Sequence record: PZ179884.1
Origin: a phage
Reading direction: 5' to 3' (one strand)
DNA: 44,035 bases
The notes below the pieces were generated by a model. That model was given only the letters and a program-made list of their open reading frames with translations. It had not been told where the DNA came from and searched no databases. Positions 2,668 to 42,793 of the stretch are shown piece by piece (positions within the stretch are counted from its first letter, which is position 1; every line of letters begins with the position of its first letter). Position numbers and translations under genes: made by a program.

Positions 2668-3717
2668 ATGGCAATTACCACTATCGGCGATATCGTAACT
2701 GGCAACATCCCGGTCCTGGCGTCTTATATGACCGAGGACCCGGTAGAAAAAACCGCGTTCTTCCAGTCTGGTATTCTGACCCCGACCCCGTACGCTGCCG
2801 AGATTGCCCGCGGCCCGTCCAACGTCGCTAATATTCCTTTCTGGAAAGCGATTGATACCTCTATCGAGCCGAACTACTCGAACGACGTATACCAGGACAT
2901 CGCCACCCCGCGTAACGTGCAGACCGGCGAGATGATGGCGCGCGTTGCGTACCTGAACGAAGGTTTCGGTCAGGCGGATTTGACCGTTGAACTGACCAGC
3001 CAGAACCCGCTGCAATCCGTAGCGTCACGTCTGGATAACTTCTGGCAGCGTCAGGCACAACGCCGTCTGATTGCTACCGCGCTCGGGCTGTACAATGACA
3101 ACGTAGCCGCTACCGACGCATACCACGAGCAGAATGACATGGTAATCGACGTGTCTGCTACTCTGGGCTTCGATGCGGGCGCGTTCATCGACGCTACCCA
3201 GACTATGGGCGATGCTCTGATGGGCAACGGCGGTGAAGTGCTGGGGGCTATCGCGATGCATAGCTTCGTTTATGCGCAGGCACGTAAGCAGCAGCTTATC
3301 GACTTCATCCGTGACGCGGACAACAACACCATGTTCGCCACCTACCAGGGCTACCGCGTGATTGTTGACGACAGCATGACCGTAGTCGGCACTGGCCCGA
3401 CCCGTAAGTTCATCTCCATCATCTTCGGCAACGGCGCTATCGGTTACGGTGAAGGTTCTCCGTCCAACCCGCTGGAATACGAGCGCGAAGCGTCCCGCGG
3501 CAACGGCGGCGGCGTTGAAACCCTGTGGACCCGTAAGACCTGGTTGCTACATCCGTTTGGCTACAGCTTCACCAGCGCGGTAATCACCGGCAACGGCACC
3601 GAGACTGTAGCCCGCTCTGCTTCCTGGCAGGACCTGGCGAATGCCTCCAACTGGAACCGTGTTGTCGACCGTAAGCATGTGCCTATTGCCTTCCTGGTAA
3701 CTGGTGTAGGGTCTTAA
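2668..3717 (+). CDS. Major capsid protein (349 aa)
   Basis: ORF track; position after scaffold; size and composition typical of HK97-fold capsid; strong terminator follows. Confidence 0.7.
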   Translation: MAITTIGDIVTGNIPVLASYMTEDPVEKTAFFQSGILTPTPYAAEIARGPSNVANIPFWKAIDTSIEPNYSNDVYQDIATPRNVQTGEMMARVAYLNEGFGQADLTVELTSQNPLQSVASRLDNFWQRQAQRRLIATALGLYNDNVAATDAYHEQNDMVIDVSATLGFDAGAFIDATQTMGDALMGNGGEVLGAIAMHSFVYAQARKQQLIDFIRDADNNTMFATYQGYRVIVDDSMTVVGTGPTRKFISIIFGNGAIGYGEGSPSNPLEYEREASRGNGGGVETLWTRKTWLLHPFGYSFTSAVITGNGTETVARSASWQDLANASNWNRVVDRKHVPIAFLVTGVGS

Positions 3718-3734
3718 GGTTAAGCTATAATCGA

Positions 3735-3761
3735 GAGGGACTTCGGTCCCTCTTTTCATTT
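3735..3761 (+). terminator. Rho-independent terminator after major capsid gene
   Basis: Stem GAGGGAC / GTCCCTC, loop TTCG, followed by TTTTCATTT. Confidence 0.7.
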
Positions 3762-3778
3762 ACTAAGAGGATTCCTAA

Positions 3779-4120
3779 ATGGCAGACGTATTGAAGCGAC
3801 GCATCACCGGCGTCTCCGCTGACGCCCCGGGCGCTAAGATCGACATGGCGACTATTTCACCTGCGTCTTTCTCTTCCGCGCTGGCGGCTACTACCGCAGT
3901 GACCATAGGTGAAACTATGACGCTGACCGTAACGGTAGCCGGCGGTCTGGAGCCATATTCTTATCAGTGGTACAAGAACAATAACGCTATCGCCGGGGCT
4001 ACCGCGGCTACCTATGCTAAAGCGTCAACCACTACCGCCGATTCTGGTACGTATAAAGTGGTTGTTCACGATGTGTATGGTAATATTATCTCCAGCAGCA
4101 CCGTAGCAACTGTGTCTTAA
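3779..4120 (+). CDS. Ig-like domain protein, likely capsid decoration (113 aa)
   Basis: Ig signature SYQWYKNN...GTYKVVVHD, paralogous to the C-terminus of the 1-459 product. Confidence 0.55.
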   Translation: MADVLKRRITGVSADAPGAKIDMATISPASFSSALAATTAVTIGETMTLTVTVAGGLEPYSYQWYKNNNAIAGATAATYAKASTTTADSGTYKVVVHDVYGNIISSSTVATVS

Positions 4121-4156
4121 TACAACGGCCCTTCGGGGCCGTAATAAGGAAAGGTC

Positions 4157-4336
4157 ATGGCAGATAATTACGTAATCCGCGAAAAGTATACCCACGTTGA
4201 TATCGTTGACGGACAGGTGATGCCTGTTCGCGGTGTGGTAGAAGCGGATGAACTGGTTGCAACCCAACCAGACAATGAAGAAGCGCACAACAACGGCGGT
4301 GGTGCCAAGCGTCGTCGCCGTAAGTCAGAGGAATAA
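4157..4336 (+). CDS. Small basic protein (59 aa), not in ORF track
   Basis: ATG with AAGGAAAGG RBS; C-terminal GGGAKRRRRK; fills gap between flanking genes. Confidence 0.4.
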   Translation: MADNYVIREKYTHVDIVDGQVMPVRGVVEADELVATQPDNEEAHNNGGGAKRRRRKSEE

Positions 4337-4339
4337 TTT

Positions 4340-4852
4340 ATGCCGCTAATCGTGGAAACGGGGGCAATCGTCCCGAATGCTGATTCGTACATCTCACTAG
4401 CGGACGCCCGCGCGTTAGCGGCTAATTATGGCCTTGAACTACCGGCAGACGATACCGCTGCAGAGGTGGCCTTGCGCAACGGTGCTACTTATGTCGGGCT
4501 TGCAGAACCGCAGATGTGCGGTCGTCGTGTATCCGCTGAACAGTCTCTGGCGTATCCTCGCACTGGTGTAACATTGAATGGTTTCCCCGTATCGAACAAC
4601 GTTATCCCGAAACAGGTAATTCTTGCGCAAGTAATCGCTGCGGCTACATACGGTGCTGGTACTGAGGTGAGGGCTAACTCTGACGGTCGTTCCGTGCAGA
4701 CAGAGCGCGTAGAGGGCGCGGTGACAGTGACCTACTTCAACAACGGCAGCAGTGGCGCTACAACCGCGATTACCGCTGCGGACGACGCCTTACGCCCGTT
4801 ACTGTGCGGTGGTCTTAACAATGGCTTCTCGTTTAACGTGTACCGGGGCTGA
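4340..4852 (+). CDS. Head-tail joining region structural protein (170 aa)
   Basis: ORF track; operon position between capsid and tail genes. Confidence 0.45.
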   Translation: MPLIVETGAIVPNADSYISLADARALAANYGLELPADDTAAEVALRNGATYVGLAEPQMCGRRVSAEQSLAYPRTGVTLNGFPVSNNVIPKQVILAQVIAAATYGAGTEVRANSDGRSVQTERVEGAVTVTYFNNGSSGATTAITAADDALRPLLCGGLNNGFSFNVYRG

Positions 4853-4854
4853 AA

Positions 4855-5469
4855 ATGGCGAAGACTAAAACAGAGATGTTTACCCTTATCGGCGCGAACC
4901 TCCCAGATAACACCGCCGGACTTATTACCCCCGCGAAGCTACGCGAGGTAATGACGCAGATGGCCGACTCGCCTATTTACGCCACTCCGGGTGTTAAAGA
5001 GGTTGAAGTTCTCCGCGCTGCGTCTACCGTAATACAAGCGCCAACAGCGACGGACACGGCGTTGCAGTTAACTTTTGGCTCCGCTAAGGGAAGTGCATCT
5101 GACCCGGTAATGATTAATGCCGCCGGGCTGGTTACGTTCAACGCCGCAGGCAACTACGCCGTTCGCATCAAGTTACAAGCTGGCCGCACAGGGGCCAGCG
5201 GTACATCTATCCTGCTATCACGTATTTTAGTAAACGGCGCTCAGTACGGCTCACCCGCCGCCACGAAACTGGTAAGCGCCGACATAACAATCCCGATTGA
5301 ATCCCGCGTCGTTATTAACCCTGCAGCAGGCCAGACGTTTGCCGTTCAGATTATGCGAGATAGCGCAGGGAGCAACTTCGGCGGTGTATATCCGCAAGCG
5401 GCTACAGTAACCTCATGGGGCACAGCGCCGTCAGCGTTATTGGTTATCCCGAGACTGGAGGCCGCGTAA
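4855..5469 (+). CDS. Head-tail joining region structural protein (204 aa)
   Basis: ORF track; tight coupling to flanking genes. Confidence 0.45.
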   Translation: MAKTKTEMFTLIGANLPDNTAGLITPAKLREVMTQMADSPIYATPGVKEVEVLRAASTVIQAPTATDTALQLTFGSAKGSASDPVMINAAGLVTFNAAGNYAVRIKLQAGRTGASGTSILLSRILVNGAQYGSPAATKLVSADITIPIESRVVINPAAGQTFAVQIMRDSAGSNFGGVYPQAATVTSWGTAPSALLVIPRLEAA

Positions 5470-5600
5470 TGCGTAAAATAATTAATATGTGGATTAATTC
5501 TGATTTTTTGTGGAAGTACGAATTTTTGGTATCAGTGTTTGCGCTGGTATCAACAACAGCTCTAATTATATTTTTAGCGGTTTGCGGGGAGTCAACATGA
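5469..5600 (+). CDS. Small hydrophobic peptide (43 aa), AT-rich insert
   Basis: ATG overlaps upstream stop (TAATG); single predicted TM helix; stop overlaps next ATG (ATGA); local AT-richness differs from neighbours. Confidence 0.35.
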   Translation: MRKIINMWINSDFLWKYEFLVSVFALVSTTALIIFLAVCGEST

Positions 5601-5956
5601 GCACCGCCTTCAGTAAACGTATGCAAGGCGTTGGTACGCGCCTGCTAACCAAATTCGGTAGCACGGTATCTCTAGTCCGCGCTGGCTCGAAAGTGTGGGA
5701 CGAAATTCTCGGTGAGTACGTCTGGTCCGCGGATGAAGTGCTGCCGTTGAAGGCCGTTCCGGTTCCGGTAAACGCAGGACTGGTAAACGGTACGACGATT
5801 CAGGCGGGCGACATGATTGTTAAAGCGGATTGCAGTGTCGTTCCGAAGATGGAAGACAAGGTGCAATTCGGCGGCGAGCAATGGTCTGTCGTGGTCATCG
5901 AGAAGAAGATGGTTAACGATGATGTTGTGGCCTACTTTATTCAGGTGAGAAAATGA
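5597..5956 (+). CDS. Head-tail joining / head closure protein (119 aa)
   Basis: ATG at 5597 in frame with track ORF 5510-5956. Confidence 0.45.
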   Translation: MSTAFSKRMQGVGTRLLTKFGSTVSLVRAGSKVWDEILGEYVWSADEVLPLKAVPVPVNAGLVNGTTIQAGDMIVKADCSVVPKMEDKVQFGGEQWSVVVIEKKMVNDDVVAYFIQVRK

Positions 5957-6453
5957 GTTTCGCGCTTGATGTCTCTAAGTTCGTGGAAAAGGCGAAGAAG
6001 AACCCTGAGAAGGTGATGCGTCAGGTGTCTATCAAGCTGTTTTCCGCTATCATAAAGGCGAGTCCGGTAGATACAGGCCGGTTCCGAATGAACTGGATGG
6101 CCTCTGGCAGTACCCCCGCTTCCGGTACAAGCCGCGGTACTGACCCTAGCGGGGCGAACGCAATAAGTGCCATGGTTTCTACCGTGTCTGGTTTACCCGA
6201 CTGGAGCGAGTTCACCCTGACAAATAATCTGCCGTATGCGGAAGTTATAGAGTTCGGGGGTTACGCTACCGGCTTCCATGGCCCTAAGCGTCCTTCTAAC
6301 TTAGGCTCTAAATTTGTTGGCCCATTGAGGCCGAAAGCGCCCAGCAGAACAACCACAGACGGATATTCCCTTCAGGCTCCGCAAGGTGTTGTCCGGGTTA
6401 ACGTTCAGCGATTCAATAAACTGCTCGAAGAAGAAGCGAGGAAGTATAAATAA
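5953..6453 (+). CDS. HK97 gp10-like neck / tail completion protein
   Basis: Motif VDTGRFRMNW resembles the DTGxLR signature of the HK97 gp10 family (recalled). Confidence 0.5.
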   Translation: MSFALDVSKFVEKAKKNPEKVMRQVSIKLFSAIIKASPVDTGRFRMNWMASGSTPASGTSRGTDPSGANAISAMVSTVSGLPDWSEFTLTNNLPYAEVIEFGGYATGFHGPKRPSNLGSKFVGPLRPKAPSRTTTDGYSLQAPQGVVRVNVQRFNKLLEEEARKYK

Positions 6454-6866
6454 TGGGCTACTTTGAGGACTTAACAAAAGCGTTCGATGTTCCGCTGGTA
6501 GCCTTCGGAACCGCCAACGGCATCAAGGTTGCGCTTGAAAACATCGACGCGCCGACGTCAACCGATACGCCGTATCTGGCGAGTTACATGCTACTGGCAG
6601 ATACCGAGCAGGCGGATTTGTTCTTCACTGAGCAACGCTCTGGTATTTATCAGGTAGACATTAACTACGCATCGGTGAAAGGTAGCGCGCCAATCAATAA
6701 AATGGCAGACTTACTTAACACGGCGTTTAAAGCAGGTAAGTCATTTTCGCGTAACGACATCTGCGCCGAGGTTCAATCGGTTAGCCTGGGGCCGCTGATT
6801 GTAGAAAACGGATGGGCCAAACGGCCATTGTCAATTAACTTTATAGCATTCACCAAGAGGCTGTGA
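6453..6866 (+). CDS. Tail component, possibly tail terminator (137 aa)
   Basis: ORF track; position immediately before major tail protein. Confidence 0.4.
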   Translation: MGYFEDLTKAFDVPLVAFGTANGIKVALENIDAPTSTDTPYLASYMLLADTEQADLFFTEQRSGIYQVDINYASVKGSAPINKMADLLNTAFKAGKSFSRNDICAEVQSVSLGPLIVENGWAKRPLSINFIAFTKRL

Positions 6867-6868
6867 AT

Positions 6869-8035
6869 ATGGCTACAACTCCTTTTAAGGGCGCGAATAC
6901 CGCGCAATTCTATGTGGCGGAAGTGACCCCGGGTGTAACACCGACTAACCCGGTCTGGTCACCATTACGTAACACGGGCGGTGTTCCTGCCATTACCCGT
7001 GACACACTGACCTCCAACGAACTCGACGGCAGCCGTGAAACTACATCCATCCGCACCGGTAACAAACAGGTTAGCGGTGAATACGCAATTGAGCTTAGCT
7101 CTAAAAGCCAGGATGACTGGTTGGCAGGTGCTTTAGGCTCTACGTGGCAATCCGGTGTTTCTCTGCCAGGGCTATCGATCACCGTCGCGCCCGCGGGCAA
7201 GACGTTCACACGCGCTACCGGCAGTTTTATCACTGACGGAGTTGGGGTAGGCGACCTGATTGCGTTTACCGACTTAACAGGCGATAACGCAAAACCATTT
7301 ATTGTTACCGCAGTAACGGCTACCGTTGTTACTGGTGCAGGCATCCAACACACCCTGACCACCGAGACAAAAACTAGTAAGGCTAAAACTGGCGACACGC
7401 TGGAAACCGGTAACACATGTAAGACGTTCTCTATTCTCACCTGGTACAAAGGACAGTGCGGCGGGACTGACGCATACACACTAACCAAAGGTGTGGAAGT
7501 TTCCGGTTTCACCGTTGAGCAGGCCGTTAACGCGATGGTTACAGGTAGCTTCCCGTTCATCGGGCGCAGCCAGGAGATTCTTACTACGCCGCCGTCTGGT
7601 TCCAACTTCTCCTCTGTCACGTTTGGTGATGAGCCATTCTCCTCGGTTGACGTTTCTGTGTTTGACGGCTATACGCCGTTGCGTTGCGACAGCCTGACCA
7701 TCACCAACGACAACAGCGCATCCGCGCAGTTCGAACTCGGCAACACTAACGTAGCGTTTGTAGAACGTAGCCGCGCGGCTAACACCTTCTCCATCTCCGG
7801 CAAGCTGTATGACATGGCGATGATTCAGAAGTTTATCAACGAGCAGCAGGTAGAGATTAACTCTATTCTGGCGGGGGTAAACGGGGCTATGTCTTTCAGT
7901 TTGAAACGTGCGGAGCTTACGGCAGTTACCCCAGAGATTGGCGGACCTGAGTCAATCACTCAGTCCATTGAAGGCCAGGCTACTGGCAACCAGTACCAGT
8001 CGTCTATTGTTATTCAGCGTATCACCTACGCATAA
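6869..8035 (+). CDS. Major tail protein
   Basis: ATG at 6869 with AAGAGG RBS (track start 6863 is GTG); Thr/Ser/Gly-rich 389 aa protein ahead of the tail module; strong terminator follows. Confidence 0.55.
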   Translation: MATTPFKGANTAQFYVAEVTPGVTPTNPVWSPLRNTGGVPAITRDTLTSNELDGSRETTSIRTGNKQVSGEYAIELSSKSQDDWLAGALGSTWQSGVSLPGLSITVAPAGKTFTRATGSFITDGVGVGDLIAFTDLTGDNAKPFIVTAVTATVVTGAGIQHTLTTETKTSKAKTGDTLETGNTCKTFSILTWYKGQCGGTDAYTLTKGVEVSGFTVEQAVNAMVTGSFPFIGRSQEILTTPPSGSNFSSVTFGDEPFSSVDVSVFDGYTPLRCDSLTITNDNSASAQFELGNTNVAFVERSRAANTFSISGKLYDMAMIQKFINEQQVEINSILAGVNGAMSFSLKRAELTAVTPEIGGPESITQSIEGQATGNQYQSSIVIQRITYA

Positions 8036-8040
8036 AACTA

Positions 8041-8063
8041 AGGCCCCGAAAGGGGCCTTTTTT
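8041..8063. terminator. Bidirectional rho-independent terminator
   Basis: Stem AGGCCCC / GGGGCCT with GAAA loop and T6 run; A-run on the other side. Confidence 0.75.
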
Positions 8064-8064
8064 A

Positions 8065-8295
8065 TTACTCATCAATGTTACTCCTGTACTCCCGTAACTT
8101 TTCCAGACTTTCAATTGCTTCCGCTAAGTCGGTTCCGGTGTCCTTGTGTCCACGTAAACCCATGCACAATAGCTTCTTCAATGCGTGCTGTAACGCCGGG
8201 TCGCGGATGTCGAAAGCGCGGAGCACATCATAAACGTCTACTGTCATAGTGCTGCCGTGAGTATTTGTCATTGTGCGGTTGTATTTTGAAGTCAT
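8065..8295 (-). CDS. Hypothetical protein (76 aa), last gene of antisense island
   Basis: ORF track; start overlaps stop of upstream gene. Confidence 0.45.
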   Translation of the reverse strand: MTSKYNRTMTNTHGSTMTVDVYDVLRAFDIRDPALQHALKKLLCMGLRGHKDTGTDLAEAIESLEKLREYRSNIDE

Positions 8296-9422
8296 CCCAG
8301 CATCTCCGGTGAAATAGTTAAACGTGCGACCTCACCATATTCGGCGCTATAAGTAATTACGTTTGCACTACGGCCTGACATCCACCCGCCGCGTGAGGCG
8401 TAGGCATCTTTAGCCGCTAAAGTGCGGTGTTGTTCAACAATCATGTTACGGCTTTCTACAATCTTCTGATGGTGCAGGTGGCCTACGTGGGCGTAGCTGT
8501 AAACACTCTCACCGAACGCTTTGCGGAACTTGGCAATCATAACCGGTTCGATAGCATCGAATCGCGCCTTATGCCCGTGGTGAAAGAACAACGTCGTTTT
8601 TCCGTGTTGCACCATCTTGTAAACATCCGGCGACGTATCGACAATCACTCGGCTGTCGTTCGAATATAAAACTGTGAACATTTCAGCCAGCCATACAGAG
8701 CCTACAGGGTCATGGTTCCCCTGTACGATAAGCAAGCGAACATTTTTATGTTTAACCAGTGCCATATCTACAACACGGCGTACCATACGAATCATGTAGC
8801 GGACGAGTTTCTGGTAGCGAGTGTCTGCGTCCAACACGTGACGCGACTCAGGTGTAACGGCATCCAGACTATCGAAGTGCGCGAAATCACCCAGCAGGTT
8901 AATAACTCCTGTTCCTGCATCCGGTGCTTTCTGAAACGCCGCGTCGAACCAACGAGAGAACAGGTCTTCCGCAATCTTTATATCCCAGTCGTCGCCGCTC
9001 TCGTCGGCCCAGGCAAGCATACCGAGATGGAAATCAGATACCGTGTAAAGATTGAGTAGCTTGTCGTCGCGTTTGGCTCGAGTCGCTTTAGCCGGCGCAA
9101 CTGGCGTAATCTCTGACTTCATGCCTTCAATCACGGCTTTCATCAACTCGACCTGACGTTCAGCGTCGGTGTCTGTCTTAACCCATTGCAACTTAGTATT
9201 GCCGAACTCGTCTACCAGAGACGACGTCCCTTTAATCTTGTAGCCGTCTGGGACAAGGTGGCTAACGTCACGCCCGTGGCCTACACCTTTCTTAGCCAGC
9301 TTCGCTTTACGGATACGAATAACTCGGTCTGAGATGCCGTATTTACGGGCGATGTCTACATTCTTCATCCCGGCGTTCAATTCTTCCTGTAACTGTTCGT
9401 CGGTTATTTTCTTCTGAGCCAT
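8292..9422 (-). CDS. N-terminal HTH domain fused to calcineurin-like metallophosphoesterase (376 aa)
   Basis: HTH-like NVDIARKYGISDRVIRIRK; phosphoesterase motifs SDFHLG, GDFAHFD, GNHD, HHGH, GHLHH in canonical order; RBS GAGGAA. Confidence 0.6.
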   Translation of the reverse strand: MAQKKITDEQLQEELNAGMKNVDIARKYGISDRVIRIRKAKLAKKGVGHGRDVSHLVPDGYKIKGTSSLVDEFGNTKLQWVKTDTDAERQVELMKAVIEGMKSEITPVAPAKATRAKRDDKLLNLYTVSDFHLGMLAWADESGDDWDIKIAEDLFSRWFDAAFQKAPDAGTGVINLLGDFAHFDSLDAVTPESRHVLDADTRYQKLVRYMIRMVRRVVDMALVKHKNVRLLIVQGNHDPVGSVWLAEMFTVLYSNDSRVIVDTSPDVYKMVQHGKTTLFFHHGHKARFDAIEPVMIAKFRKAFGESVYSYAHVGHLHHQKIVESRNMIVEQHRTLAAKDAYASRGGWMSGRSANVITYSAEYGEVARLTISPEMLG

Positions 9423-9487
9423 GCTTACTTCCTCGTGTTTAGGATTTGTCCTATTTAACCACAGTGGATTCCTTTAAATAAAGGCAA

Positions 9488-9814
9488 CTATTTACTTTCT
9501 GCGCCTATCGCCCACCCTGTCATTACCATTTGCAGACGGGTGGCTGTCAGTAGGCTATAGAAAGCATCTCCGTTTTTCTCTACCGAACGTATCACTGTGT
9601 AGGTTACGGCCTGCGGGGGTAGGCCCGATTTACCAACCTCCACGGCGGCCTCACACTCGCGAACTGTAGAGTCCTTGAACGCCTTTACAATAGTAGGGTC
9701 GGCTTTCTCGAGCACACCAGAAGTCATAAGAACAGATTCACTAAATACCTGTTCGCACGGGGCTCCAAAAGTAGCAAAAGACATAAACCCCAGAGCTAAT
9801 ACTAATTTACGCAT
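9488..9814 (-). CDS. Secreted / periplasmic protein (108 aa)
   Basis: N-terminal signal peptide MRKLVLALGFMSFATFGA; RBS GAGGG 8 nt upstream. Confidence 0.5.
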   Translation of the reverse strand: MRKLVLALGFMSFATFGAPCEQVFSESVLMTSGVLEKADPTIVKAFKDSTVRECEAAVEVGKSGLPPQAVTYTVIRSVEKNGDAFYSLLTATRLQMVMTGWAIGAESK

Positions 9815-9842
9815 AATTATACCCTCAGTAAGTTACTGGTGA

Positions 9843-9871
9843 ATAGTACCCTATTATATTGGGGCGCGCAA
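9843..9871 (-). promoter_or_regulatory. Class B promoter (minus strand: TTGCGC -17- TACTAT) driving the antisense island
   Basis: Spacer CCCCAATATAATAGGG is near-identical to the class B promoter at 32856-32884. Confidence 0.55.
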
Positions 9872-9978
9872 GTAGTGTGTTAGAATAAGTTTGCGCCTAG
9901 TGTCGCACACGAAAAGCGGGTGGTTCCCGCCGGGCGCATTAACCATAACCAGTAACCTCTTAACCAAAGGACTAAAGA

Positions 9979-10395
9979 ATGAAACTTTCTGATTTCTATT
10001 TTGCCGACCGCCACGCCGCCGGTACTAAAATGCCTATCCTTCTGCCGAGTGGTAAAGACTCCGGTGAATGGTTGCAGGTCATCGGCCCCGATTGTGACGC
10101 TGGTGTTCGTGCAGGCCGCGCCTACACAACGGCAATTCGACGCCTTACGGAAGAACTTGCGCCCTTAGATAAAGAGTGTGAGGCACTGAATAACTGGGCG
10201 CGCTATAACGATGAGAAGGGCTGGCGGGTGATGGACCTGAACAAGCAGCTTGCCGTGGAAATTGTCACCGGTTGGTCATTCGACGAACCATTCAGCAAAG
10301 AGGCGCTGGCTAACCTGTTCGACCAGTACAGTGGACTGGCTGAGGCGGTAGTTAAGCACCACACCGACAGCCGCGAGAAACTATCGGAAAAGTAA
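9979..10395 (+). CDS. Tail assembly chaperone (G-like)
   Basis: Position directly upstream of tape measure gene; ends at a candidate slippery site. Confidence 0.5.
   Translation: MKLSDFYFADRHAAGTKMPILLPSGKDSGEWLQVIGPDCDAGVRAGRAYTTAIRRLTEELAPLDKECEALNNWARYNDEKGWRVMDLNKQLAVEIVTGWSFDEPFSKEALANLFDQYSGLAEAVVKHHTDSREKLSEK
10386..10392 (+). other. Candidate -1 programmed frameshift site G_GAA_AAG
   Basis: Heptamer sits immediately before the stop codon (10393-10395); the -1 frame is open from 10356 to 10757. Confidence 0.4.
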
Positions 10396-10757
10396 AAGCG
10401 CTGTATGAATTTGCGCAATGGTGTTTTGTTGACCGCCACAAACGTAAGCAATTCGACGACATCGCGGCAGGGCACCAGGCGGCTTTGATTGCAATGGGCG
10501 TGATTAAAGAACCGCAGATGAAAGAAACGACGGGGCCTGAATGCCCCGTTTCTCTTATCGACGTGTTCGATAAATACCGTGCCATTAAATTCCTACAGCG
10601 CGAAACAGATGATACTATCGTTATAATCCCGCGCGATGCGCTCAAATGGCAAGATTTGGCTGCGTTTCGCGATGTCGCCGGTTACGGCATAAGTTTGTTC
10701 GAAGCCGAGGTTATCATGGGCTTAGACGGAATATTTGAGGGCAGAGAAGATGGCTGA
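10392..10757 (+). CDS. -1 frame extension of the tail assembly chaperone (GT-like fusion product)
   Basis: Track ORF 10485-10757 (TTG start) lies in the -1 frame, has no convincing own start, and ends overlapping the tape measure start. Confidence 0.4.
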   Translation, partial: VKALYEFAQWCFVDRHKRKQFDDIAAGHQAALIAMGVIKEPQMKETTGPECPVSLIDVFDKYRAIKFLQRETDDTIVIIPRDALKWQDLAAFRDVAGYGISLFEAEVIMGLDGIFEGREDG

Positions 10758-13062
10758 TACGGCTTCCCTAATTGCCAGAGTAAAAACAGAAGGTGCTGAC
10801 GTAGCTGCCAAACAGCTTGACGCTATGGCGGCATCCGCAGCCCGGGCGGACACATCGGTAAATAAACTAGCTCCGGATGTTAATAAAGTAAACTCCGCTA
10901 CGTCTAAAGCTGCCTCTGACGGTTTCGCTAAGTTCCGTAACGCCGCAGGGCAGGTGGGCTTCCAGGTACAGGACATGGTTGTCCAGTTGCAGTCCGGTAC
11001 GTCTGCATTCGTAGCAATCGGGCAACAAGGTTCGCAGCTTGCGGGTGCTTTCGGCCCTGGTGGTGCGGTGCTTGGAGCTGTAATTGCTCTTGCGTCAGCA
11101 ATCGGTGGTGTCCTGTACAAATCGCTAACCGAAGCAGAAGGCAGTTCAAAAGACCTCGAAGCCGCGCAGAAACAGTTAAAAGACACCTTCCAGCAAACGG
11201 CATCCGGTTCTCTTGAACTGACAGATGGCCTTATCCAGCTTACCCAAATCAGCAGAGAAGCAGCGGAGACTCAGCTTGCTCTGGCTAAGGCTAACGCGGA
11301 CCTTATCGCGCAGCAAACCGCTAAAGCTGTTCGTGAAGATGCCGAATCATGGGAAACGTGGAAAGCCTCCACGGCATCGGCGATTAGCCAGTATGATGCA
11401 TTAGTCTCTAAGGGCGCAGATGTAGGCGACACATTAGAAAAACTCGGCGGCACTTACGAGGGCAACATCGTAGGCGTCAACATGCTGGCGCAGAATATCG
11501 CGGAGCTTAGCAGTAAGTTCGGAGTTAACCGTGACCAGGCGCTGGAGATGATAGCGGCGCAGAGTGCGTTTAACAAAGAGCCAACCGCCGAGAATGCCCG
11601 TCGCATCGCCGATGTGTTTACCGACTGGCTCGGTAACACAAAACAGTTGAACCCGGAACTTATCCGCCTGACGGACAACGCCAACAAGAACGCCACGGCA
11701 CTGGAGAACGCGGAGAAGTCAGCAAACGCGGCGGCAGAGGCCCAAAAGAATCTTGGTCGTAACGTCAACTCAACAACGCAGAGATTCCAGGAACAGAACG
11801 AAGCTATCGTCAAAAACCAGCAAATCGCTATCTTAAGTGACCGCGAGCGTATCCGTGCGCAAGCTGAACTGGATAAGCAGGCGTTCGCTAAACGTGAAGC
11901 TGTCACCAAAGAACAGATAGCCGCGTATAATGCGGCCCGCGACGCGGAAGCGCAGCAAGACATCGCCCGCATTGACAAGACCGAGAAAGAGAAGGCCGAC
12001 CGCGAGGCTAAATCGAACGAGGAACGTCTGGCGGCACAAGCCAAACGCGAAGAAACAGCGGCACAACGTCAGAAAAAAGCGGCGGAAGATTTCCTGGCTA
12101 CTGTCGACCGCACAACCGGAGATGAGATTTCGCGCATTACCGCTGCGGAAGAACAGAAACTGGCGAAACTGGAGGAGTTCAACCGCGCCGGAACGATAAG
12201 CCAGCAGCAGTATGAAAACGCCAAAACTCAAATTATGCTCACAGCCGAGCAGGCCAGACAGGAAGAACTGGATAAGAAAAGAAAAGAGCAGCAGGAAAAG
12301 CAGCAGAAAGGCGAGGACTTCATGGCGCAGATTATGGGTCAGAACGCTACTGAGCTTGAGCTTCTCGACATCCAGGAACAGCAGAAACTGGAGGTAGCGG
12401 ATAAGTACCGTGAGCAGGGGCTTATTAGTGAGAAGCAGTACCAGGCGGCGCTTAACGCCATCAATGAGCAGTATGCTACGAAGCGTGCCGACGCAACGGC
12501 AACCGCCTTCGGTAACATGGCTTCAAACATCGGTTCGGCTTTGGGCGAGGCTTCTGGCGCGTATAAGGCATTCGCTATCGTACAGGCCACTATCGCCACG
12601 TACACCGCGGCTATCGAGGCGTACAAGTCCACAGCGGCTATCCCTGTAGTTGGTCCGTTCCTGGCTCCTGTAGCTGCCGCCGCTGCCGTTGGGGCGGGTA
12701 TGGCGCAGATTTCCGCTATCAGGTCCGCACGTGAACAGGGCGGACAGTTATCAGCCGGGCAGGCTTCCACCATCGCTGAACGTGGTAAACCAGAAGTTAT
12801 CATGCCCGCTGGTGCGTCACGTGTACGCACCGCACAGCAGATGAAAGAAATTATGGGGCAAAACGGGTCTTCTTCCGGCCCATCTAATGTTACCATTGTA
12901 AATAATACATCGAGTCAGATTGGCAACGTATCCACCGAGCAGGATGATGAAGGCCGTCTGCGTATCATCATAGAAGAGCAAGTTGCTGCATCTTTGCAGA
13001 ATAGCAACAGTAAGATTAGCAAGGCCCGCAAGGCCACAAGAAACGCGCCGGGGTTTAAATAA
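10750..13062 (+). CDS. Tail tape measure protein
   Basis: ATG at 10750 (track start 10735); long Ala/Gln/Glu-rich helical protein with Gly/Ala-rich hydrophobic stretches. Confidence 0.75.
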   Translation: MADTASLIARVKTEGADVAAKQLDAMAASAARADTSVNKLAPDVNKVNSATSKAASDGFAKFRNAAGQVGFQVQDMVVQLQSGTSAFVAIGQQGSQLAGAFGPGGAVLGAVIALASAIGGVLYKSLTEAEGSSKDLEAAQKQLKDTFQQTASGSLELTDGLIQLTQISREAAETQLALAKANADLIAQQTAKAVREDAESWETWKASTASAISQYDALVSKGADVGDTLEKLGGTYEGNIVGVNMLAQNIAELSSKFGVNRDQALEMIAAQSAFNKEPTAENARRIADVFTDWLGNTKQLNPELIRLTDNANKNATALENAEKSANAAAEAQKNLGRNVNSTTQRFQEQNEAIVKNQQIAILSDRERIRAQAELDKQAFAKREAVTKEQIAAYNAARDAEAQQDIARIDKTEKEKADREAKSNEERLAAQAKREETAAQRQKKAAEDFLATVDRTTGDEISRITAAEEQKLAKLEEFNRAGTISQQQYENAKTQIMLTAEQARQEELDKKRKEQQEKQQKGEDFMAQIMGQNATELELLDIQEQQKLEVADKYREQGLISEKQYQAALNAINEQYATKRADATATAFGNMASNIGSALGEASGAYKAFAIVQATIATYTAAIEAYKSTAAIPVVGPFLAPVAAAAAVGAGMAQISAIRSAREQGGQLSAGQASTIAERGKPEVIMPAGASRVRTAQQMKEIMGQNGSSSGPSNVTIVNNTSSQIGNVSTEQDDEGRLRIIIEEQVAASLQNSNSKISKARKATRNAPGFK

Positions 13063-32790: not shown

Positions 32791-32855
32791 ACCAAGTAAT
32801 AAGAATAAAGGCACAACCCTCCCCGAAGAATCACAACGGCAACGTAACTATTCTC

Positions 32856-32884
32856 TTGCACACCCCAATATAATAGGATACTAT
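32856..32884 (+). promoter_or_regulatory. Class B promoter (TTGCAC -17- TACTAT) for the early-right operon
   Basis: Spacer ACCCCAATATAATAGGA; downstream TCACTTATCGAAACGAG leader motif. Confidence 0.6.
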
Positions 32885-32918
32885 TCACTTATCGAAACGA
32901 GACAGAGGAGTGGTGGTT

Positions 32919-33795: not shown

Positions 33796-33878
33796 ATTTT
33801 TGTTCTATTTCACCAAACGCAACAATCGAAGCGACTATTGCAGGAGATGCAACAATATAACACACCAATAAAATTTAC

Positions 33879-33907
33879 TTGCACACTGGGATAGAATAGG
33901 CTACTAT
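33879..33907 (+). promoter_or_regulatory. Class B promoter (TTGCAC -17- TACTAT)
   Basis: Spacer ACTGGGATAGAATAGGC; downstream TCATTTACACAAACGAG leader motif. Confidence 0.6.
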
Positions 33908-33938
33908 TCATTTACACAAACGAGAGGAGAGACGGAAG

Positions 33939-37084: not shown

Positions 37085-37210
37085 TGGACGAATACGAAGG
37101 CGTTTAGTAAACTTATCCCTACGCTGTTTGTGCTTGCATACTAAGCCCCGGTAAACCCGAAGCAGCAGCCCAAGCGGTGGAGACTGCGTAGGGTTCAAGG
37201 GCTTATGGCC

Positions 37211-37242
37211 AAAACCCGGACCGCAAATCCGGGTTTTATTTT
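37211..37242 (+). terminator. Rho-independent terminator after the lysis cassette
   Basis: Stem CCCGGA / TCCGGG with loop CCGCAAA, followed by TTTTATTTT. Confidence 0.7.
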
Positions 37243-37247
37243 ACCAA

Positions 37248-37276
37248 TTGACACCTAAGACTAATCCGACGATACT
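37248..37276 (+). promoter_or_regulatory. Promoter TTGACA -17- GATACT
   Basis: Consensus -35; 17-nt spacer; -10 matches TATAAT at 4 of 6 positions. Confidence 0.45.
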
Positions 37277-37282
37277 TAAATC

Positions 37283-37347
37283 ACCTCCTGCTCCATCTCT
37301 CTTCTCTCCAGTTTTATCCCGGCCCTGACCCAGCCGGGATTTTTTTT
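37283..37347 (+). ncRNA. Candidate ~65-nt small RNA with CU-rich body and intrinsic terminator
   Basis: No ORF; body ACCTCCTGCTCCATCTCTCTTCTCTCC; contains CACCTCCT identical to the 16S rRNA 3' end motif. Confidence 0.35.
37317..37347 (+). terminator. Strong rho-independent terminator
   Basis: Stem TCCCGGC / GCCGGGA with 9-nt loop, followed by T8. Confidence 0.75.
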
Positions 37348-37369
37348 ATCTATTTTCTGCAATGACTAG

Positions 37370-37398
37370 TTGACTATTACCATCGACCCTATTATATT
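37370..37398 (+). promoter_or_regulatory. Promoter TTGACT -17- TATATT for the operon starting at 37433
   Basis: Hexamers with 17-nt spacer; downstream leader CATCGACAACGAG resembles class B leaders. Confidence 0.5.
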
Positions 37399-37432
37399 TA
37401 CTCCATCGACAACGAGAACGGGGTAGAGAGAA

Positions 37433-37621
37433 ATGATGGCTAAGATTAAGCATACCGATAACTGGGGTGATTTCATGGAGATAGAGAAATGCCGTGACGG
37501 GACATTACTTATAACTTGTACAGACGGAGATACCGACGAATCAGTTAGTGTTAACGTGAGTATGGATGATTTTATGATTATTGTTGAGCAAGCGGCGGCT
37601 TTTTACGGAGATGATAAATGA
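37433..37621 (+). CDS. Hypothetical protein (62 aa), acidic
   Basis: ORF track. Confidence 0.45.
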   Translation: MMAKIKHTDNWGDFMEIEKCRDGTLLITCTDGDTDESVSVNVSMDDFMIIVEQAAAFYGDDK

Positions 37622-37767
37622 AAATCACAGATATCGAAGCATTCAAAGACGCACAACTGATGGCGCGCATCGCCGTTAGTAACCTGAGCAACAGCATTCC
37701 AGCGGACGCGTTCTGGTTCGCTGCGATGCAGACACTTAAAGCAGCTTATGCAGGAGATAAGAAATGA
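37618..37767 (+). CDS. Hypothetical protein (49 aa), not in ORF track
   Basis: ATGA coupling at both ends. Confidence 0.35.
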   Translation: MKITDIEAFKDAQLMARIAVSNLSNSIPADAFWFAAMQTLKAAYAGDKK

Positions 37768-37961
37768 AAGTTAAAGCCGCTAAAATTCTCTGGTTAGCCG
37801 CCCTTGACTATGTCACAGAGGGTAAAGTGTATGATGTATACAACCCGACAGCTACTGGTTTCGGTTATATAGACTCCGACGACGACTGCCATATTTTCAT
37901 AGACTTTGGTAACGATGACGGTGATGGTTTCCACGGCGTTAAATGGGAGGTTGTAGAATGA
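37764..37961 (+). CDS. Hypothetical protein (65 aa)
   Basis: ORF track. Confidence 0.45.
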   Translation: MKVKAAKILWLAALDYVTEGKVYDVYNPTATGFGYIDSDDDCHIFIDFGNDDGDGFHGVKWEVVE

Positions 37962-38119
37962 GCGAACAAGGTCAAGTAAGCCAACCATTACGAGTAGGCC
38001 GTAAGGTGAGTCACACCCCGTTCCCGACACGCGAGGAACTGATGAAACGTAACAGTTTCCCTGGGCCGGACAAGAACAAGTATCTCAACCGCATGTGGGG
38101 AGAGCGTAAAAATGACTGA
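37958..38119 (+). CDS. Hypothetical protein (53 aa), not in ORF track
   Basis: ATGA coupling; translated by hand. Confidence 0.3.
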   Translation: MSEQGQVSQPLRVGRKVSHTPFPTREELMKRNSFPGPDKNKYLNRMWGERKND

Positions 38120-38297
38120 CCGTGAATATGAAAAGATGATGGTAGAGGCCGTTAACGGCGGCGTAGACATTAGCCACGTGATGTGCGTCCTGAATAATAA
38201 AATCGCGGTAGCCGAGCAAATGGTGGAGTCGCTTTATGAGACGCGCCGCGAACTGATTAACTGCTTCAACCTGAACAAAGGTGACACCAATGCCTAA
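38112..38297 (+). CDS. Hypothetical protein (61 aa)
   Basis: ORF track. Confidence 0.45.
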   Translation: MTDREYEKMMVEAVNGGVDISHVMCVLNNKIAVAEQMVESLYETRRELINCFNLNKGDTNA

Positions 38298-38589
38298 AAT
38301 CACAATTGCATCGCTCGAGCGCCGTATTATGGTGCTTGAGTCGGAGAAACAGACGTTAGGCGGGCAACTGTCAATTAACGGTGAGTTTCAACTGGAGGCG
38401 TATAAAGAACTTCTAGAGGCGTTTAAAGAGCTACAAGCCATCGCGTCTGACATAGAAAATATGATTGGATTGTTGCAATCCGGGGAGTGGGCCGAACACT
38501 GCACTAAATCGGCGTTAGGAAAACGGCTTGAGACGGAGATTACTGACATGCTGAGTTGTCTTGTTGAGGCGCCAGATGAGCACGCCTGA
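38290..38589 (+). CDS. Hypothetical coiled-coil protein (99 aa)
   Basis: ATG 38290 in frame with track ORF 38281-38589. Confidence 0.45.
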   Translation: MPKITIASLERRIMVLESEKQTLGGQLSINGEFQLEAYKELLEAFKELQAIASDIENMIGLLQSGEWAEHCTKSALGKRLETEITDMLSCLVEAPDEHA

Positions 38590-38758
38590 GCCGGTAGTTA
38601 TCGATGGCGTCCTGTGGAAACCTTACTCGGTTAACCACATCGACGCCGATGGGAAGAAGTTCAGTTTCTACATTTTTGCGATTAGCCGCGAGCACGCTGC
38701 GTGTGTAGTAGACGATATACGAGAAACGGCGTGGCTTGGCGATGAGATAGTGGGGTGA
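38576..38758 (+). CDS. Hypothetical protein (60 aa)
   Basis: ATG 38576 in frame with track ORF 38561-38758 (TTG start). Confidence 0.4.
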   Translation: MSTPEPVVIDGVLWKPYSVNHIDADGKKFSFYIFAISREHAACVVDDIRETAWLGDEIVG

Positions 38759-38762
38759 GAGC

Positions 38763-38846
38763 ATGAGTCTTGAGGTTGTTATAAGTCTGGTTGGTCTTAG
38801 TTACTTCATTGGGCTATTGGTCGGTTTTCTGTGGGGTAGATACTAA
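38763..38846 (+). CDS. Micro membrane peptide (27 aa)
   Basis: MSLEVVISLVGLSYFIGLLVGFLWGRY; TAATG coupling to next ORF. Confidence 0.25.
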   Translation: MSLEVVISLVGLSYFIGLLVGFLWGRY

Positions 38847-39016
38847 TGTTCAGCGACATCAACGCAGCAATCGAAGAAGCAATCTGGCGCCGTTACAACG
38901 GCGAGCAACAGCGTCACTTCTGCCTGGTGCAACGTGGTAACATGGTCGCCGTGGTGCAGGACCGCGATAACAAATATCCGAATGCGATGTGGACAACGAG
39001 GAATTTCTTAGGATGA
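38846..39016 (+). CDS. Hypothetical protein (56 aa), not in ORF track
   Basis: Translated by hand; ATGA coupling. Confidence 0.3.
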   Translation: MFSDINAAIEEAIWRRYNGEQQRHFCLVQRGNMVAVVQDRDNKYPNAMWTTRNFLG

Positions 39017-39249
39017 TTACCAGCATTCCTAACCTGATTAAAGAATTTGGTACGATGGCGGAGACATGCCGACAAACCGGTATCAACGAAATGACGATTG
39101 CTAAGTACAGTAAAGACGTTGATTGTGAGCGCCACGTAATTTATAACAATCGTCTGATGACGCACGTTAAGACTAGCCCGGTGTTATTCACGCGCCGTGG
39201 TATCACTAAAACTGAGCAACGTATTGCTAAAGAGGAGAGTGGAGAATGA
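39013..39249 (+). CDS. Small HTH-like protein (78 aa)
   Basis: ATG 39013 in frame with track ORF 38989-39249; HTH-like ETCRQTGINEMTIAKYSKD. Confidence 0.4.
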   Translation: MITSIPNLIKEFGTMAETCRQTGINEMTIAKYSKDVDCERHVIYNNRLMTHVKTSPVLFTRRGITKTEQRIAKEESGE

Positions 39250-39401
39250 AAAAGTTAACTATCTACTGGAAAACAGGGGCTACGTCAGAACTCGATGTTT
39301 TCAGCGTAACGCAGTGTGAAAAGTTCTGGTATGCCGAAACATTCAACGGTGAAGTGAGAATACCAATCGCACTGGTAGACGGCGGCGATATAACAGAATA
39401 A
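39246..39401 (+). CDS. Hypothetical protein (51 aa), not in ORF track
   Basis: ATGA coupling; terminator follows. Confidence 0.3.
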   Translation: MKKLTIYWKTGATSELDVFSVTQCEKFWYAETFNGEVRIPIALVDGGDITE

Positions 39402-39411
39402 CCAACCCACA

Positions 39412-39434
39412 AGCCCTCTACGGAGGGCTTTTCT
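39412..39434 (+). terminator. Rho-independent terminator upstream of terminase genes
   Basis: Stem AGCCCTC / GAGGGCT, loop TACG, followed by TTTTCT. Confidence 0.6.
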
Positions 39435-39528
39435 GTACATCCCGCCCAATCCCCTTATATAATCCATTTAGACGCGTAGGGCGCGTCTGGTGCGCTCTGA
39501 TGGTCAGACGCATATGCAAGGGGATTCT

Positions 39529-41311: not shown

Positions 41312-42793
41312 ATGTTAACTATGAACGGTCAGAATCAGGGTGTTAAGACAAAACACCGGGAATGGCTGCATCACTTCGATAAATGGCAGAAGGTACGCCA
41401 CGCTCTTGAAGGCGACCTTATCCGCTATCTGCGCAACGTCGGGAAGAACGAGCCTGACCAGACCTACGCAGCACAGCGACAGGAAGAATACGAGAACGGC
41501 GCTATCTGCTACAATTTCACCAAACGCACGCTGGCGGGGATGACTGGGTCAGTGATGCGCAAAGACCCTGAGCAGATTATCCCGCCTGAACTTGAGTACC
41601 TGTTGCACAACGCTGACGGTTCAGGTGTCGGGCTGTGGCAGCACGCGCAGGATACGCTGATGGAGATTAACTCGATAGGCCGTGGCGGGTTGCTGGTGGA
41701 CGCCCCGGAAACAGCCGCAGCAACGGCGGCAGAGCAGAACGCGGGATTATTAAACCCGGTAATCGCATTCTATACCGCGGAGAACATTATCAACTGGAGA
41801 CTCACCCGCATCGGTTCAGTGAACCGCGTGACGATGGTTGTATTGCGTGAGGCATGGGAATACTCGGAACCAGGCGCTGAGTTTGAAACAAAATTCGGCG
41901 AGCAATACCGCGTCCTTGACCTGATTGACGGTCGCTACCGCCAGCGCATCTACCGCTTCGATGCCGAAGGTGGCGCACAGGATGAAGTAATCGAAATCTT
42001 CCCGGAACTCGGCGAACAGTTGCGCGGTAAAATCCCGTTCACGTTCATTGGCGCAAGCAACAACGACGCCACTATAGACGATGCGCCTTTACTGCCGTTA
42101 GCTGAGCTAAATATAGGACACTTCAGAAATTCGGCCGATGTGGAAGAGGCCAGCTTTATAGTAGGTCAGCCGACACTGTTCATTGCCCCCGGCGAGAACA
42201 TGAGCATGGAGCAGTGGAAAGAAGCCAACCCACACGGCATACGCATGGGGTCGCGTTCAGGCCACAACATCGGCTCCGGCGGAAATGCGTTTCTGGTTCA
42301 GGCGGCGGAAACTAACCTCGCCAAACAGAATATGCTGGATAAAGAGAATCAGGCCATCCAGATTGGCGCGCAGCTTATCACCCCGACGCAGCAAATCACC
42401 GCGGAATCGGCCCGCCTGCAACGCGGCGCCGACACGTCAGTCATGGCAACAATAGCACGTAATGTAAGCATGGCGTATACCGATGCGTTGCGCTGGGTTG
42501 CGGGTATGCTTGGGCTTAGTGAAGATACTGAGATTGAGTTCAAGCTGAATATGGAATTCTTCCTGCAACCTATGACAGCTCAGGACCGCGCTCAGTGGAT
42601 GGCGGATATTAACGCTGGCCTGCTACCCGCCACCGCTTACTATGCTGCGTTGCGCAAGGCAGGTGTGACTGACTGGACAGATGAGGACATTCAGAATGCT
42701 ATCGAGGATGCACCTCTGCCGTTGGGTTCGGTTACTCCGGTAGCAGGAGAAATTCCGCAGTCAGCGCGGCAACAAGACACCGCTCAGCAGTAA
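41312..42793 (+). CDS. Portal protein
   Basis: 493 aa; position between large terminase and head morphogenesis gene. Confidence 0.65.
   Translation: MLTMNGQNQGVKTKHREWLHHFDKWQKVRHALEGDLIRYLRNVGKNEPDQTYAAQRQEEYENGAICYNFTKRTLAGMTGSVMRKDPEQIIPPELEYLLHNADGSGVGLWQHAQDTLMEINSIGRGGLLVDAPETAAATAAEQNAGLLNPVIAFYTAENIINWRLTRIGSVNRVTMVVLREAWEYSEPGAEFETKFGEQYRVLDLIDGRYRQRIYRFDAEGGAQDEVIEIFPELGEQLRGKIPFTFIGASNNDATIDDAPLLPLAELNIGHFRNSADVEEASFIVGQPTLFIAPGENMSMEQWKEANPHGIRMGSRSGHNIGSGGNAFLVQAAETNLAKQNMLDKENQAIQIGAQLITPTQQITAESARLQRGADTSVMATIARNVSMAYTDALRWVAGMLGLSEDTEIEFKLNMEFFLQPMTAQDRAQWMADINAGLLPATAYYAALRKAGVTDWTDEDIQNAIEDAPLPLGSVTPVAGEIPQSARQQDTAQQ

Follow-up and report, generated by a model that had tools for sequence, protein, structure and literature searches.

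A candidate small-RNA gene, previously unannotated, is conserved in two genera of virulent enterobacterial phages

Enterobacterial small RNAs (sRNAs) of the RybB and OmrA/B class are Hfq-dependent, act in trans and have their seeds at the 5' terminus. DapZ and MicL are embedded in a 3' untranslated region (3' UTR) and are transcribed from a promoter of their own (type I). The Firmicutes RNAs RsaE/RoxS and RNAIII contain C-rich motifs that sit in hairpin loops and act without Hfq. In phage lambda, the pR'-6S-tR' arrangement directs a strong constitutive promoter into a nearby terminator at the head of a long operon, and StxS is a by-product sRNA of Stx phages. Here we describe a promoter-to-terminator unit at positions 37248-37347 of the phage sequence PZ179884.1, a stretch of 44,035 nucleotides (nt) that was analysed as a whole and is referred to as the window. 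The best reading of this unit is that it represents a previously unannotated small-RNA gene conserved in two genera of virulent enterobacterial phages, Kagunavirus and Jerseyvirus. Phage-encoded sRNAs are an already known kind; the putative RNA of this unit appears to be new in the Guernseyvirinae, for which no prior description of it was found.

The unit is almost certainly functional. It would be a stand-alone non-coding RNA gene with a product of about 62-65 nt, and it is composed of the following elements:

37248..37276, plus strand: promoter P1, consisting of TTGACA (37248-37253), a 17-bp spacer and GATACT (37271-37276).
37283, plus strand: predicted transcription start, 7 nt past the -10 hexamer, placed from promoter geometry.
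37283..37315, plus strand: predicted single-stranded pyrimidine-rich 5' region, the candidate seed, ACCUCCUGCUCCAUCUCUCUUCUCUCCAGUUUU.
37316..37347, plus strand: intrinsic terminator with an 8-bp stem ATCCCGGC/GCCGGGAT, a 9-nt loop CCTGACCCA and U8.

A preliminary description of this DNA had pointed to a TTGACA-17-GATACT promoter, a pyrimidine-rich segment about 7 nt past it and a strong terminator with a stem and T8, and all three were found in place. P1 matches the sigma70 consensus at 10 of 12 positions and is one of five plus-strand sites in the 44-kb window that reach at least 10/12; the lambda pL promoter has the same hexamers and the same spacing (TTGACA-17-GATACT, as confirmed in the lambda genome). 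The pyrimidine-rich segment, CACCTCCTGCTCCATCTCTCTTCTCTCC, occupies 37282-37309, with 24 pyrimidines in the first 27 nt from 37283. This value is reached by 21 of 44,009 stretches of equal length, which fall into three loci; the two other most pyrimidine-rich plus-strand loci are inside long minus-strand open reading frames (ORFs), and the tract of the unit alone is outside a long ORF. The terminator stem is formed by 37316-37323 and 37333-37340 (8 bp) around a loop of 9 nt, and T8 occupies 37340-37347. A terminator scan had overlooked this hairpin because the loop limit of the scan was 8 nt.

Folding of the RNA 37283-37347 predicted that the first 33 nt are unpaired, in both the minimum free energy and the centroid structure, and are followed by a hairpin of -13.8 kcal/mol (z = -2.6). 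An equivalent fold, with an unpaired 5' part and a hairpin at -15.5 kcal/mol (z = -4.0), was predicted for the RNA of the Jerseyvirus Ent1. Within the candidate seed, the blocks are an invariant CUCCU (37285-37289), CAUC(C/U)CUCU and CUCUCC, and the 3' end of the seed is the U-rich GUUUU. A candidate Hfq-binding module, as such modules are reportedly defined, is present in the form of GUUUUAU (Kagunavirus) or CUUUAU (Jerseyvirus) just 5' of the hairpin, together with a tail of U7-U14 in all copies. At the level of sequence, the unit has both the independent promoter and the Rho-independent terminator by which a short non-coding transcript is recognized. Two further candidate features were rejected: an H-DNA mirror repeat (CTCTCT followed by TCTCTC), which is found in the window only and is missing from relatives, and a mimic of the type I-E repeat of clustered regularly interspaced short palindromic repeats, dismissed by eye on the grounds that the hairpin loop is 9 nt rather than 4 nt and that the likeness is gone in Jerseyvirus. 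The count of GGGTCAG-type sites, possible kissing partners of the hairpin loop, was at chance level.

This anatomy resembles that of the RybB and OmrA/B class. Like those Hfq-dependent enterobacterial sRNAs with 5' seeds, the phage unit has its own sigma70 promoter and a length of 60-70 nt, and the predicted RNA has a conserved single-stranded 5' end, a U-rich stretch before the terminator and a tail of at least 7 U. Unlike them, it shows no sequence homology (Rfam negative), it comes from virulent phages, and its putative seed is a low-complexity CU tract. With the C-rich RsaE/RoxS and parts of RNAIII it shares several unpaired C/U-rich motifs able to pair with G-rich Shine-Dalgarno (SD) sequences; in contrast to those RNAs, the motifs are predicted outside hairpin loops, and there is no homology.

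No Rfam family matched at gathering thresholds in the whole window, a permissive Rfam scan of 37180-37450 gave sub-threshold, terminator-driven matches only, and no tRNA or tmRNA was found in the window. The best Rfam match was RF02278 (Betaproteobacteria toxic small RNA), with 28.1 bits and E = 6e-4 in a 271-nt search, the gathering threshold being 50 bits; what aligns is a UCUCC motif and, for the most part, the terminator. RF02278 RNAs, exemplified by Burkholderia ncS03/05/27/62, have a length of 57-92 nt, include a terminator and show toxicity upon cloning in E. coli (PMC4603805). The phage RNA is similarly short, with a UCUCC-type motif ahead of a GC-rich hairpin terminator and a run of U, but its score is far under the threshold, and its taxon and genomic context are unrelated. 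Judged by analogy, the likeness is one of design, not of membership. The pyrimidine motif of RF02278 has reportedly been proposed to cover ribosome-binding sites.

The window represents the whole or almost the whole genome of a Kagunavirus (Guernseyvirinae), a virulent siphophage of E. coli. Over 37100-37500 its identity is 99% with Escherichia phage VerenaMeyer_Bas76 (PQ850632; Bas76 below) and 92-96% with K1G, K1ind1-3 and many further E. coli siphophages. Gene order was read off the ORF map and the Bas76 annotation. A block of small plus-strand genes ends with two holins and an endolysin (stop at 37084) and is followed by the promoter-terminator unit. On the 3' side of the unit, about 10 small plus-strand ORFs (37433-39401) precede terS (39490), terL and the portal, head and tail genes, and the minus-strand replication block comes after the structural genes. 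The immediate flanks of the unit are:

37213..37243, plus strand: upstream intrinsic terminator, which closes the lysis operon in the window; stem AACCCGGA/TCCGGGTT, loop CCGCAAA, TTTTATTTT.
37370..37398, plus strand: promoter P2, TTGACT-17-TATATT, which drives the operon of about 10 small ORFs; it is within the conserved block and outside the RNA.
37404..37435, plus strand: P2 leader and start codon, CATCGACAACGAGAACGGGGTAGAGAGAAATG.

The position between the lysis-cassette terminator (37213-37243) and the promoter of the next operon (37370-37398), which had been noted earlier, was thus borne out: the upstream terminator ends 5 nt before P1, and P2 begins 22 nt beyond the U-tract of the unit. 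Other transcription-unit junctions of this genome are built in the same way, with a terminator and the next promoter as flanks. With a terminator before P1, its own promoter and terminator, and P2 after it, the unit therefore appears as a separate 65-nt transcription unit.

The upstream terminator is carried by a 163-nt non-coding insertion (37085-37247) that extends from the endolysin stop to P1 and is present in K1G-like Kagunaviruses; comparison of the copies indicated that it is missing from Jerseyvirus and from the fTaEco03-like Kagunaviruses. In the latter two groups, the endolysin stop is 2 nt before the -35 hexamer, and P1, body, terminator, P2 and leader make up the whole intergenic region. 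The hairpin of the unit is their sole lysis-operon terminator, and it is annotated as a terminator in Ent1 and phi135. In Jerseyvirus and some Kagunaviruses the lysis operon therefore ends at the same terminator, and the putative RNA gene is embedded in its 3' UTR with its own promoter. This arrangement, with P1 2 nt past the endolysin stop and a terminator in common with the lysis mRNA, is like that of DapZ and MicL. Unlike those RNAs, the sRNA in the window is uncoupled from the lysis mRNA by the separate terminator 37213-37243, so that the unit would be a free-standing gene there.

The unit has no recognizable coding potential. The sole plus-strand ORF within it, a TTG frame of 26 codons with its start on the -35 hexamer, is not conserved, and six-frame translation of four variants revealed no conserved ORF on either strand, in agreement with the earlier statement that the unit contains no ORF. 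The genera are separated by indels of 2, 4, 1 and 1 columns, none of them a multiple of three. We rejected as a gene a minus-strand mini-ORF of 6-7 codons at 37277-37311, which has a GGAG-type SD and an ATG (MEQEVI and a stop in Kagunavirus, MNKQEQV and a stop in Jerseyvirus); it is probably coincidental, because no promoter was recognized on the minus strand and S100-type phages lack the stop. In deposited records, 'hypothetical proteins' have been placed over the unit: Bas76_0074 is on the minus strand (Bas76 41461-41583; window positions 37276-37362), and the SE124_1FR record has a 42-codon plus-strand coding sequence (CDS) over the unit (538-666). The two gene calls are mutually inconsistent, and both are probably artefacts over an RNA gene.

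We then examined how the unit varies among relatives. A blastn search with 37200-37430 as query showed that the block is common to about 445 phage records, comprising 325 Salmonella, 102 Escherichia, 11 named Kagunavirus and a few others. In records without the K1G-type insertion, the match begins exactly at query position 49, the T of TTGACA. Further copies were collected by pattern scans of IMG/VR, and variation was scored in a set of 56 unique extended copies (37 Kagunavirus and 19 Jerseyvirus). All four P1 and P2 hexamers are invariant in this set except for one variable site in each Jerseyvirus -35 hexamer (the P1 variant being TTGACG), and the hairpin stem and the U-run are invariant as well. 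Variable sites amount to 59% in the P1 spacer, 24-65% in the P2 spacer and 24-45% in the spacer from terminator to P2. Invariant hexamers, stem and U-run together with varying spacers are the footprint expected of a working promoter and terminator. The proposal of a self-contained, non-coding promoter-to-terminator unit of about 65 nt is thereby backed by a gene-like pattern of conservation.

The RNA occurs in two types. The Kagunavirus type reads ACCUCCUGYUYCAUCCCUCUGCUCUCCAGUUUUAU and has the stem CCCGGC/GCCGGG; the Jerseyvirus type reads GCUCCUGYUKAUUCAUCCCUCUAGCUCCUUUAU and has the stem CCCGGUA/UACCGGG. At one stem pair, the two genera differ by a change of C:G into U:A. In Jerseyvirus, the 6 nt from the -10 hexamer to the predicted +1 are variable at every position, and from +1 onwards 4 of the 31 body sites vary (13%) versus 25 of 61 (41%) in the spacers (Fisher p = 0.008). 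The predicted +1 is a purine in every variant, A in Kagunavirus and G in Jerseyvirus, and every variant has CUCCU at +2/+3 to +6/+7 of the predicted RNA. A composition of 40% C, 41% U, 10% A and 9% G is common to the bodies of all variants. The blocks (C)UCCUGYU, CAUCCCUCU, GCUC(U)CC and UUUAU are kept between the genera despite the indels; the synonymous sites of the neighbouring endolysin are just 46-51% identical.

One metagenomic relative, IMGVR_UViG_3300015181_000003 (reverse strand), carries an element of about 105 nt between the P1 -10 hexamer and CUCCUG, about 30-135 nt past the P1 -35 hexamer. The element has 14-nt terminal inverted repeats (TTAGGCGAGTAGTG...CTACTCGCCTAA) and folds at -47 kcal/mol into a hairpin. 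It looks like a miniature mobile element, and the locus is a natural variant with a displaced sRNA 5' end.

From the promoter, the terminator, the lack of coding potential and the conservation seen in these comparisons, a mode of action can be proposed that extends to transcription, Hfq dependence, pairing mechanism and targets. We favour the view, to which we give about an even chance of being right, that the unit encodes an early, sigma70-driven, Hfq-type trans-acting sRNA that pairs through its pyrimidine-rich 5' region with purine-rich initiation regions. Host sigma70 RNA polymerase would start at P1 without phage factors, and for this reason the RNA would be expected right after DNA entry, in the first minutes of infection. 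The transcript would run from about A37283 and end at the hairpin and U-tract (37316-37347). Its unstructured 5' region would act as the seed, and the U-rich stretch, the hairpin and the 3' U tail would provide an Hfq-type anatomy. The seed with its 5'-proximal CUCCU would most likely pair with purine-rich ribosome-binding regions and reduce translation. The strongest pairing is predicted for the phage's own early/middle small-gene operons with extended GGAG-rich leaders, and host mRNAs would be equally possible targets. In the sRNA and transcriptome literature searched, no sRNA is described for Guernseyvirinae, Jerseyvirus or Kagunavirus, and the RNA is not among the phage sRNAs of a 2025 review, which includes a table of 38 uncharacterised phage sRNAs.

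The body had earlier been called anti-SD-like, and this holds in part. E. coli Kagunaviruses carry ATCACCTCCT, a 10-mer identical to the 3' tail of 16S rRNA; 0.06 chance occurrences of such a 10-mer are expected per window. CUCCU, which is part of the 16S anti-SD, is found in every variant. The identity with 16S rRNA falls to CUCCUU in RP180-type copies and to CUCCU in Jerseyvirus copies, the full CCUCC core being missing in both, and the 10-mer extends in part to the 5' side of the predicted +1.

RNAduplex was used to predict pairing of the RNA with every annotated initiation region of Bas76 and Ent1, with composition-preserving shuffles as the control. The predicted pairing correlates with SD strength (r about 0.5) and amounts to -15 to -16 kcal/mol for the early/middle small-gene operons versus -10 for structural genes (Kruskal p = 0.02, 0.035). 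The real RNA was marginally better than random genomic 31-33-mers at initiation regions (fractions 0.22 and 0.12). The preliminary description had held the body to be complementary to the purine-rich leaders of many genes, and its example GAGAGGAGAGACGGAAG does exist, at 33922-33938; the in silico pairing that it had suggested as a check, run on the phage leaders and genome, yielded no excess over shuffled sequences and no outstanding target. Because there is no such excess, the complementarity to purine-rich leaders is a compositional property; it is compatible with the anti-SD idea and is not evidence for a specific interaction. As for an origin of the RNA in the host or a long target there, blastn found no match of the RNA in 5,426 E. 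coli genomes, a search that detects only stretches of about 20 nt or longer, the size of sRNA targets being 8-15 nt.

The P2 leader is a possible cis-neighbour target of the RNA. Predicted pairing covers GGAGUAGAG..GAUG with -17 to -24 kcal/mol, against about -16 +/- 3 for shuffles. This candidate was set aside as inconsistent: depending on the variant, a fraction of 0.015 to 0.68 of the shuffles did as well as the real RNA or better, and no covariation was seen between the polymorphic seed positions and the first codons of swapped downstream genes. The leader at 37404-37432 is itself the most conserved stretch between the genera (86-97% identity), with 21-25% variable sites within genera. Phages in which another gene has taken the first place downstream (K1G, S100, SE124_1FR) have kept it too, pointing to a regulatory role of the leader itself. 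Elsewhere in the window, 32850-32902 and 33873-33925 are promoter-leader cassettes that are 77% identical to each other (TTGCAC-17-TACTAT, leader ...TCGAAACGAGA...GGAG...ATG). Their leaders have the motif CGAnAACGAGA in common with the P2 leader (37407-37420), and the motif recurs in initially transcribed regions.

Several observations weigh against the reading that we favour. In Bas76, the pairing with initiation regions had a mean of -14.4 versus -14.1 +/- 0.6 for shuffles (p = 0.31) and a best value of -30.2 versus -27.6 +/- 3.0 (p = 0.19); in Ent1, the corresponding p values were 0.05 for the mean and 0.45 for the best. Over both strands of the whole window, the best non-self site reached -30.1 kcal/mol, a value that 12 shuffled queries bracketed with their own best sites (-26.1 to -34.8). 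The top match in Bas76 was the start region of the exonuclease gene (GGGAGAGCAGAGCATGG, about 32133, minus strand), where 11 contiguous and 4 more pairs with the Bas76 sRNA (-30.2 kcal/mol) span the SD and the AUG. It was rejected as a target, since the match is missing in the window, in which sRNA and leader both differ without compensation. The Kagunavirus body varies at 14 of 33 sites (42%), with no significant difference from the spacers (31 of 62, 50%; p = 0.52), and the ratio of transitions to transversions is 13:6 in the body versus 40:34 in the spacers, again without a difference (p = 0.31). Covariation in the hairpin consists of the single compensatory event mentioned above and is hence weak. 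The 105-nt insertion between the -10 hexamer and the seed implies that an exact RNA 5' end may be dispensable. Finally, the one Kagunavirus RNA-sequencing study that was found, a time course of vB_Eco_K1B4 with public data (PRJNA939978 / PRJCA028359), analysed 57 annotated CDSs and left non-coding RNA, promoters and terminators unmentioned (PMC12645636).

These points bear on what else the unit could be. That it is transcription punctuation only, with an RNA of no sequence-specific function, is a doubtful account: the hairpin would close the lysis operon and shield P2 from read-through, P1 would be genuine, its product a by-product and the tract a tolerated spacer. In variants of this account, P1 might hold RNA polymerase beside P2 or might be the relic of an operon start. 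Such a role agrees with the lack of any terminator but the hairpin, annotated as one, downstream of the endolysin gene in Jerseyvirus and fTaEco03-like phages, with a constraint that is strongest on the hexamers, stem and U-run and leaves the Kagunavirus body as variable as the spacers, with the failure to find a specific target in the phage genome, and with the natural variant that has the 105-nt insertion at the RNA 5' end. However, P1 is invariant in the K1G-like phages despite a separate lysis terminator 5 nt upstream, the Jerseyvirus body is significantly conserved (p = 0.008), and the body stays pyrimidine-rich with an invariant 5' CUCCU across two genera despite several indels; a promoter that fires into a terminator to give a useless product would also be hard to keep unchanged in 56 unique copies. 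Mere chance juxtaposition of a promoter-like sequence and a terminator, without function, is scarcely credible. Counts in the region are near those in its shuffles, with 7 promoter-like matches versus 6.2 and 5 terminator-like matches versus 4.3, which would agree with chance, but hexamers and hairpin are invariant in the 56 copies of two genera while the flanking spacers vary, and the -35 hexamer marks the exact start of the homology.

It seems distinctly unlikely that the unit is a conditional attenuator like lambda pR'-6S-tR', in which P1 transcripts would as a rule end at the hairpin and a phage or host factor, by modifying polymerase at P1 or by acting on the leader, would permit read-through into the small-gene and structural operons. 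In outline as in lambda, a strong, putatively constitutive promoter would fire into a close intrinsic terminator, here about 60 nt on, at the head of a long co-directional gene array of about 26 kb, with a short, abundant RNA as the product that might have a second role as a regulator, and the body contains UGCUCU, which is boxA-like. At least 7 Rho-independent terminators are annotated in the Ent1 structural operon (3337-12764: after portal, head decoration, coat, Hoc and major tail), so that processive antitermination would be useful there; no antiterminator is annotated. Against the general boxA consensus, however, UGCUCU is only a partial match. Unlike the lambda arrangement, the phage unit is located after the lysis genes, has a second promoter after the terminator and comes without a Q gene that could be found: neither a Q-like nor any other antiterminator was recognized among the ten downstream small proteins (Pfam, PHROG) or in the Bas76 and Ent1 annotations. 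P2, 22 nt past the terminator, and the promoter before terS (39434-39463) intervene and make read-through from P1 unnecessary. A -10-like pause element is missing from the initially transcribed region TAAATCACCTCC, in which no TAnnnT hexamer occurs (TAAATC misses the final T). The body is predicted to be unstructured, with the terminator as its sole hairpin, unlike HK022 put with its two stem-loops or nut boxA/boxB.

The absence of a specific RNA target would also fit a decoy or mimic, in which the CU-rich RNA titrates S1, Rho or Hfq, or imitates the 16S 3' tail in Kagunavirus; we regard this as unlikely. CU-rich composition of this kind resembles rut sites and S1 ligands, and it extends here over an unpaired 33 nt with 40% C, 41% U and 9% G; composition is conserved more than exact sequence, and the 10-nt identity with the 16S tail compares with 0.06 chance matches expected per window. 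On the other side, the identity drops to 5-6 nt in Jerseyvirus and RP180-type copies, the 10-mer begins partly upstream of the predicted +1, and one 30-nt tract is short for wrapping the Rho hexamer. There is also a small chance that the Guernseyvirinae RNA acts from the first minute as an abundant free anti-SD RNA, either a genome-wide competitor of ribosomes for strong SD sequences or a decoy for a factor that binds the 16S tail or pyrimidines (S1, Rho). This idea builds on the 5' end, which has the CUCCU core of the 16S tail in general and the full ACCUCCU in the E. coli phages. If true, such an RNA would be a global RNA-based device for taking over translation or termination, unlike a gene-specific riboregulator.

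Few of the Salmonella and E. coli K1 phages put forward as agents of biocontrol and therapy are isolated as often as members of Jerseyvirus and Kagunavirus. The regulation of their genes has hardly been studied, and their genomes contain no RNA polymerase gene. If the trans-acting sRNA that we favour is real, this conserved early RNA would join the few sRNAs that strictly virulent coliphages are known to make and would offer a route to study expression timing or host shut-off by these phages; were it instead a generic SD-masking or protein-titrating molecule, it would represent a new strategy of translation take-over. Recognition of the unit as an RNA gene would correct several hundred records that are now blank or contain spurious proteins.

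Further downstream, a terminator at 39413-39428 (GCCCTC-TACG-GAGGGC-TTTT) is directly followed by a promoter at 39434-39463 (TGTACA-18-TATAAT), upstream of terS (39490). The P2 small-ORF operon is therefore separate from the packaging and structural transcription unit. Within this operon, 38989-39249 and 37943-38119 encode a NinH-like protein (Pfam PF06322, below threshold; PHROG 268) and a DUF2737 protein. The two genes recall the nin region of lambdoid phages, although the phage is a virulent siphophage.

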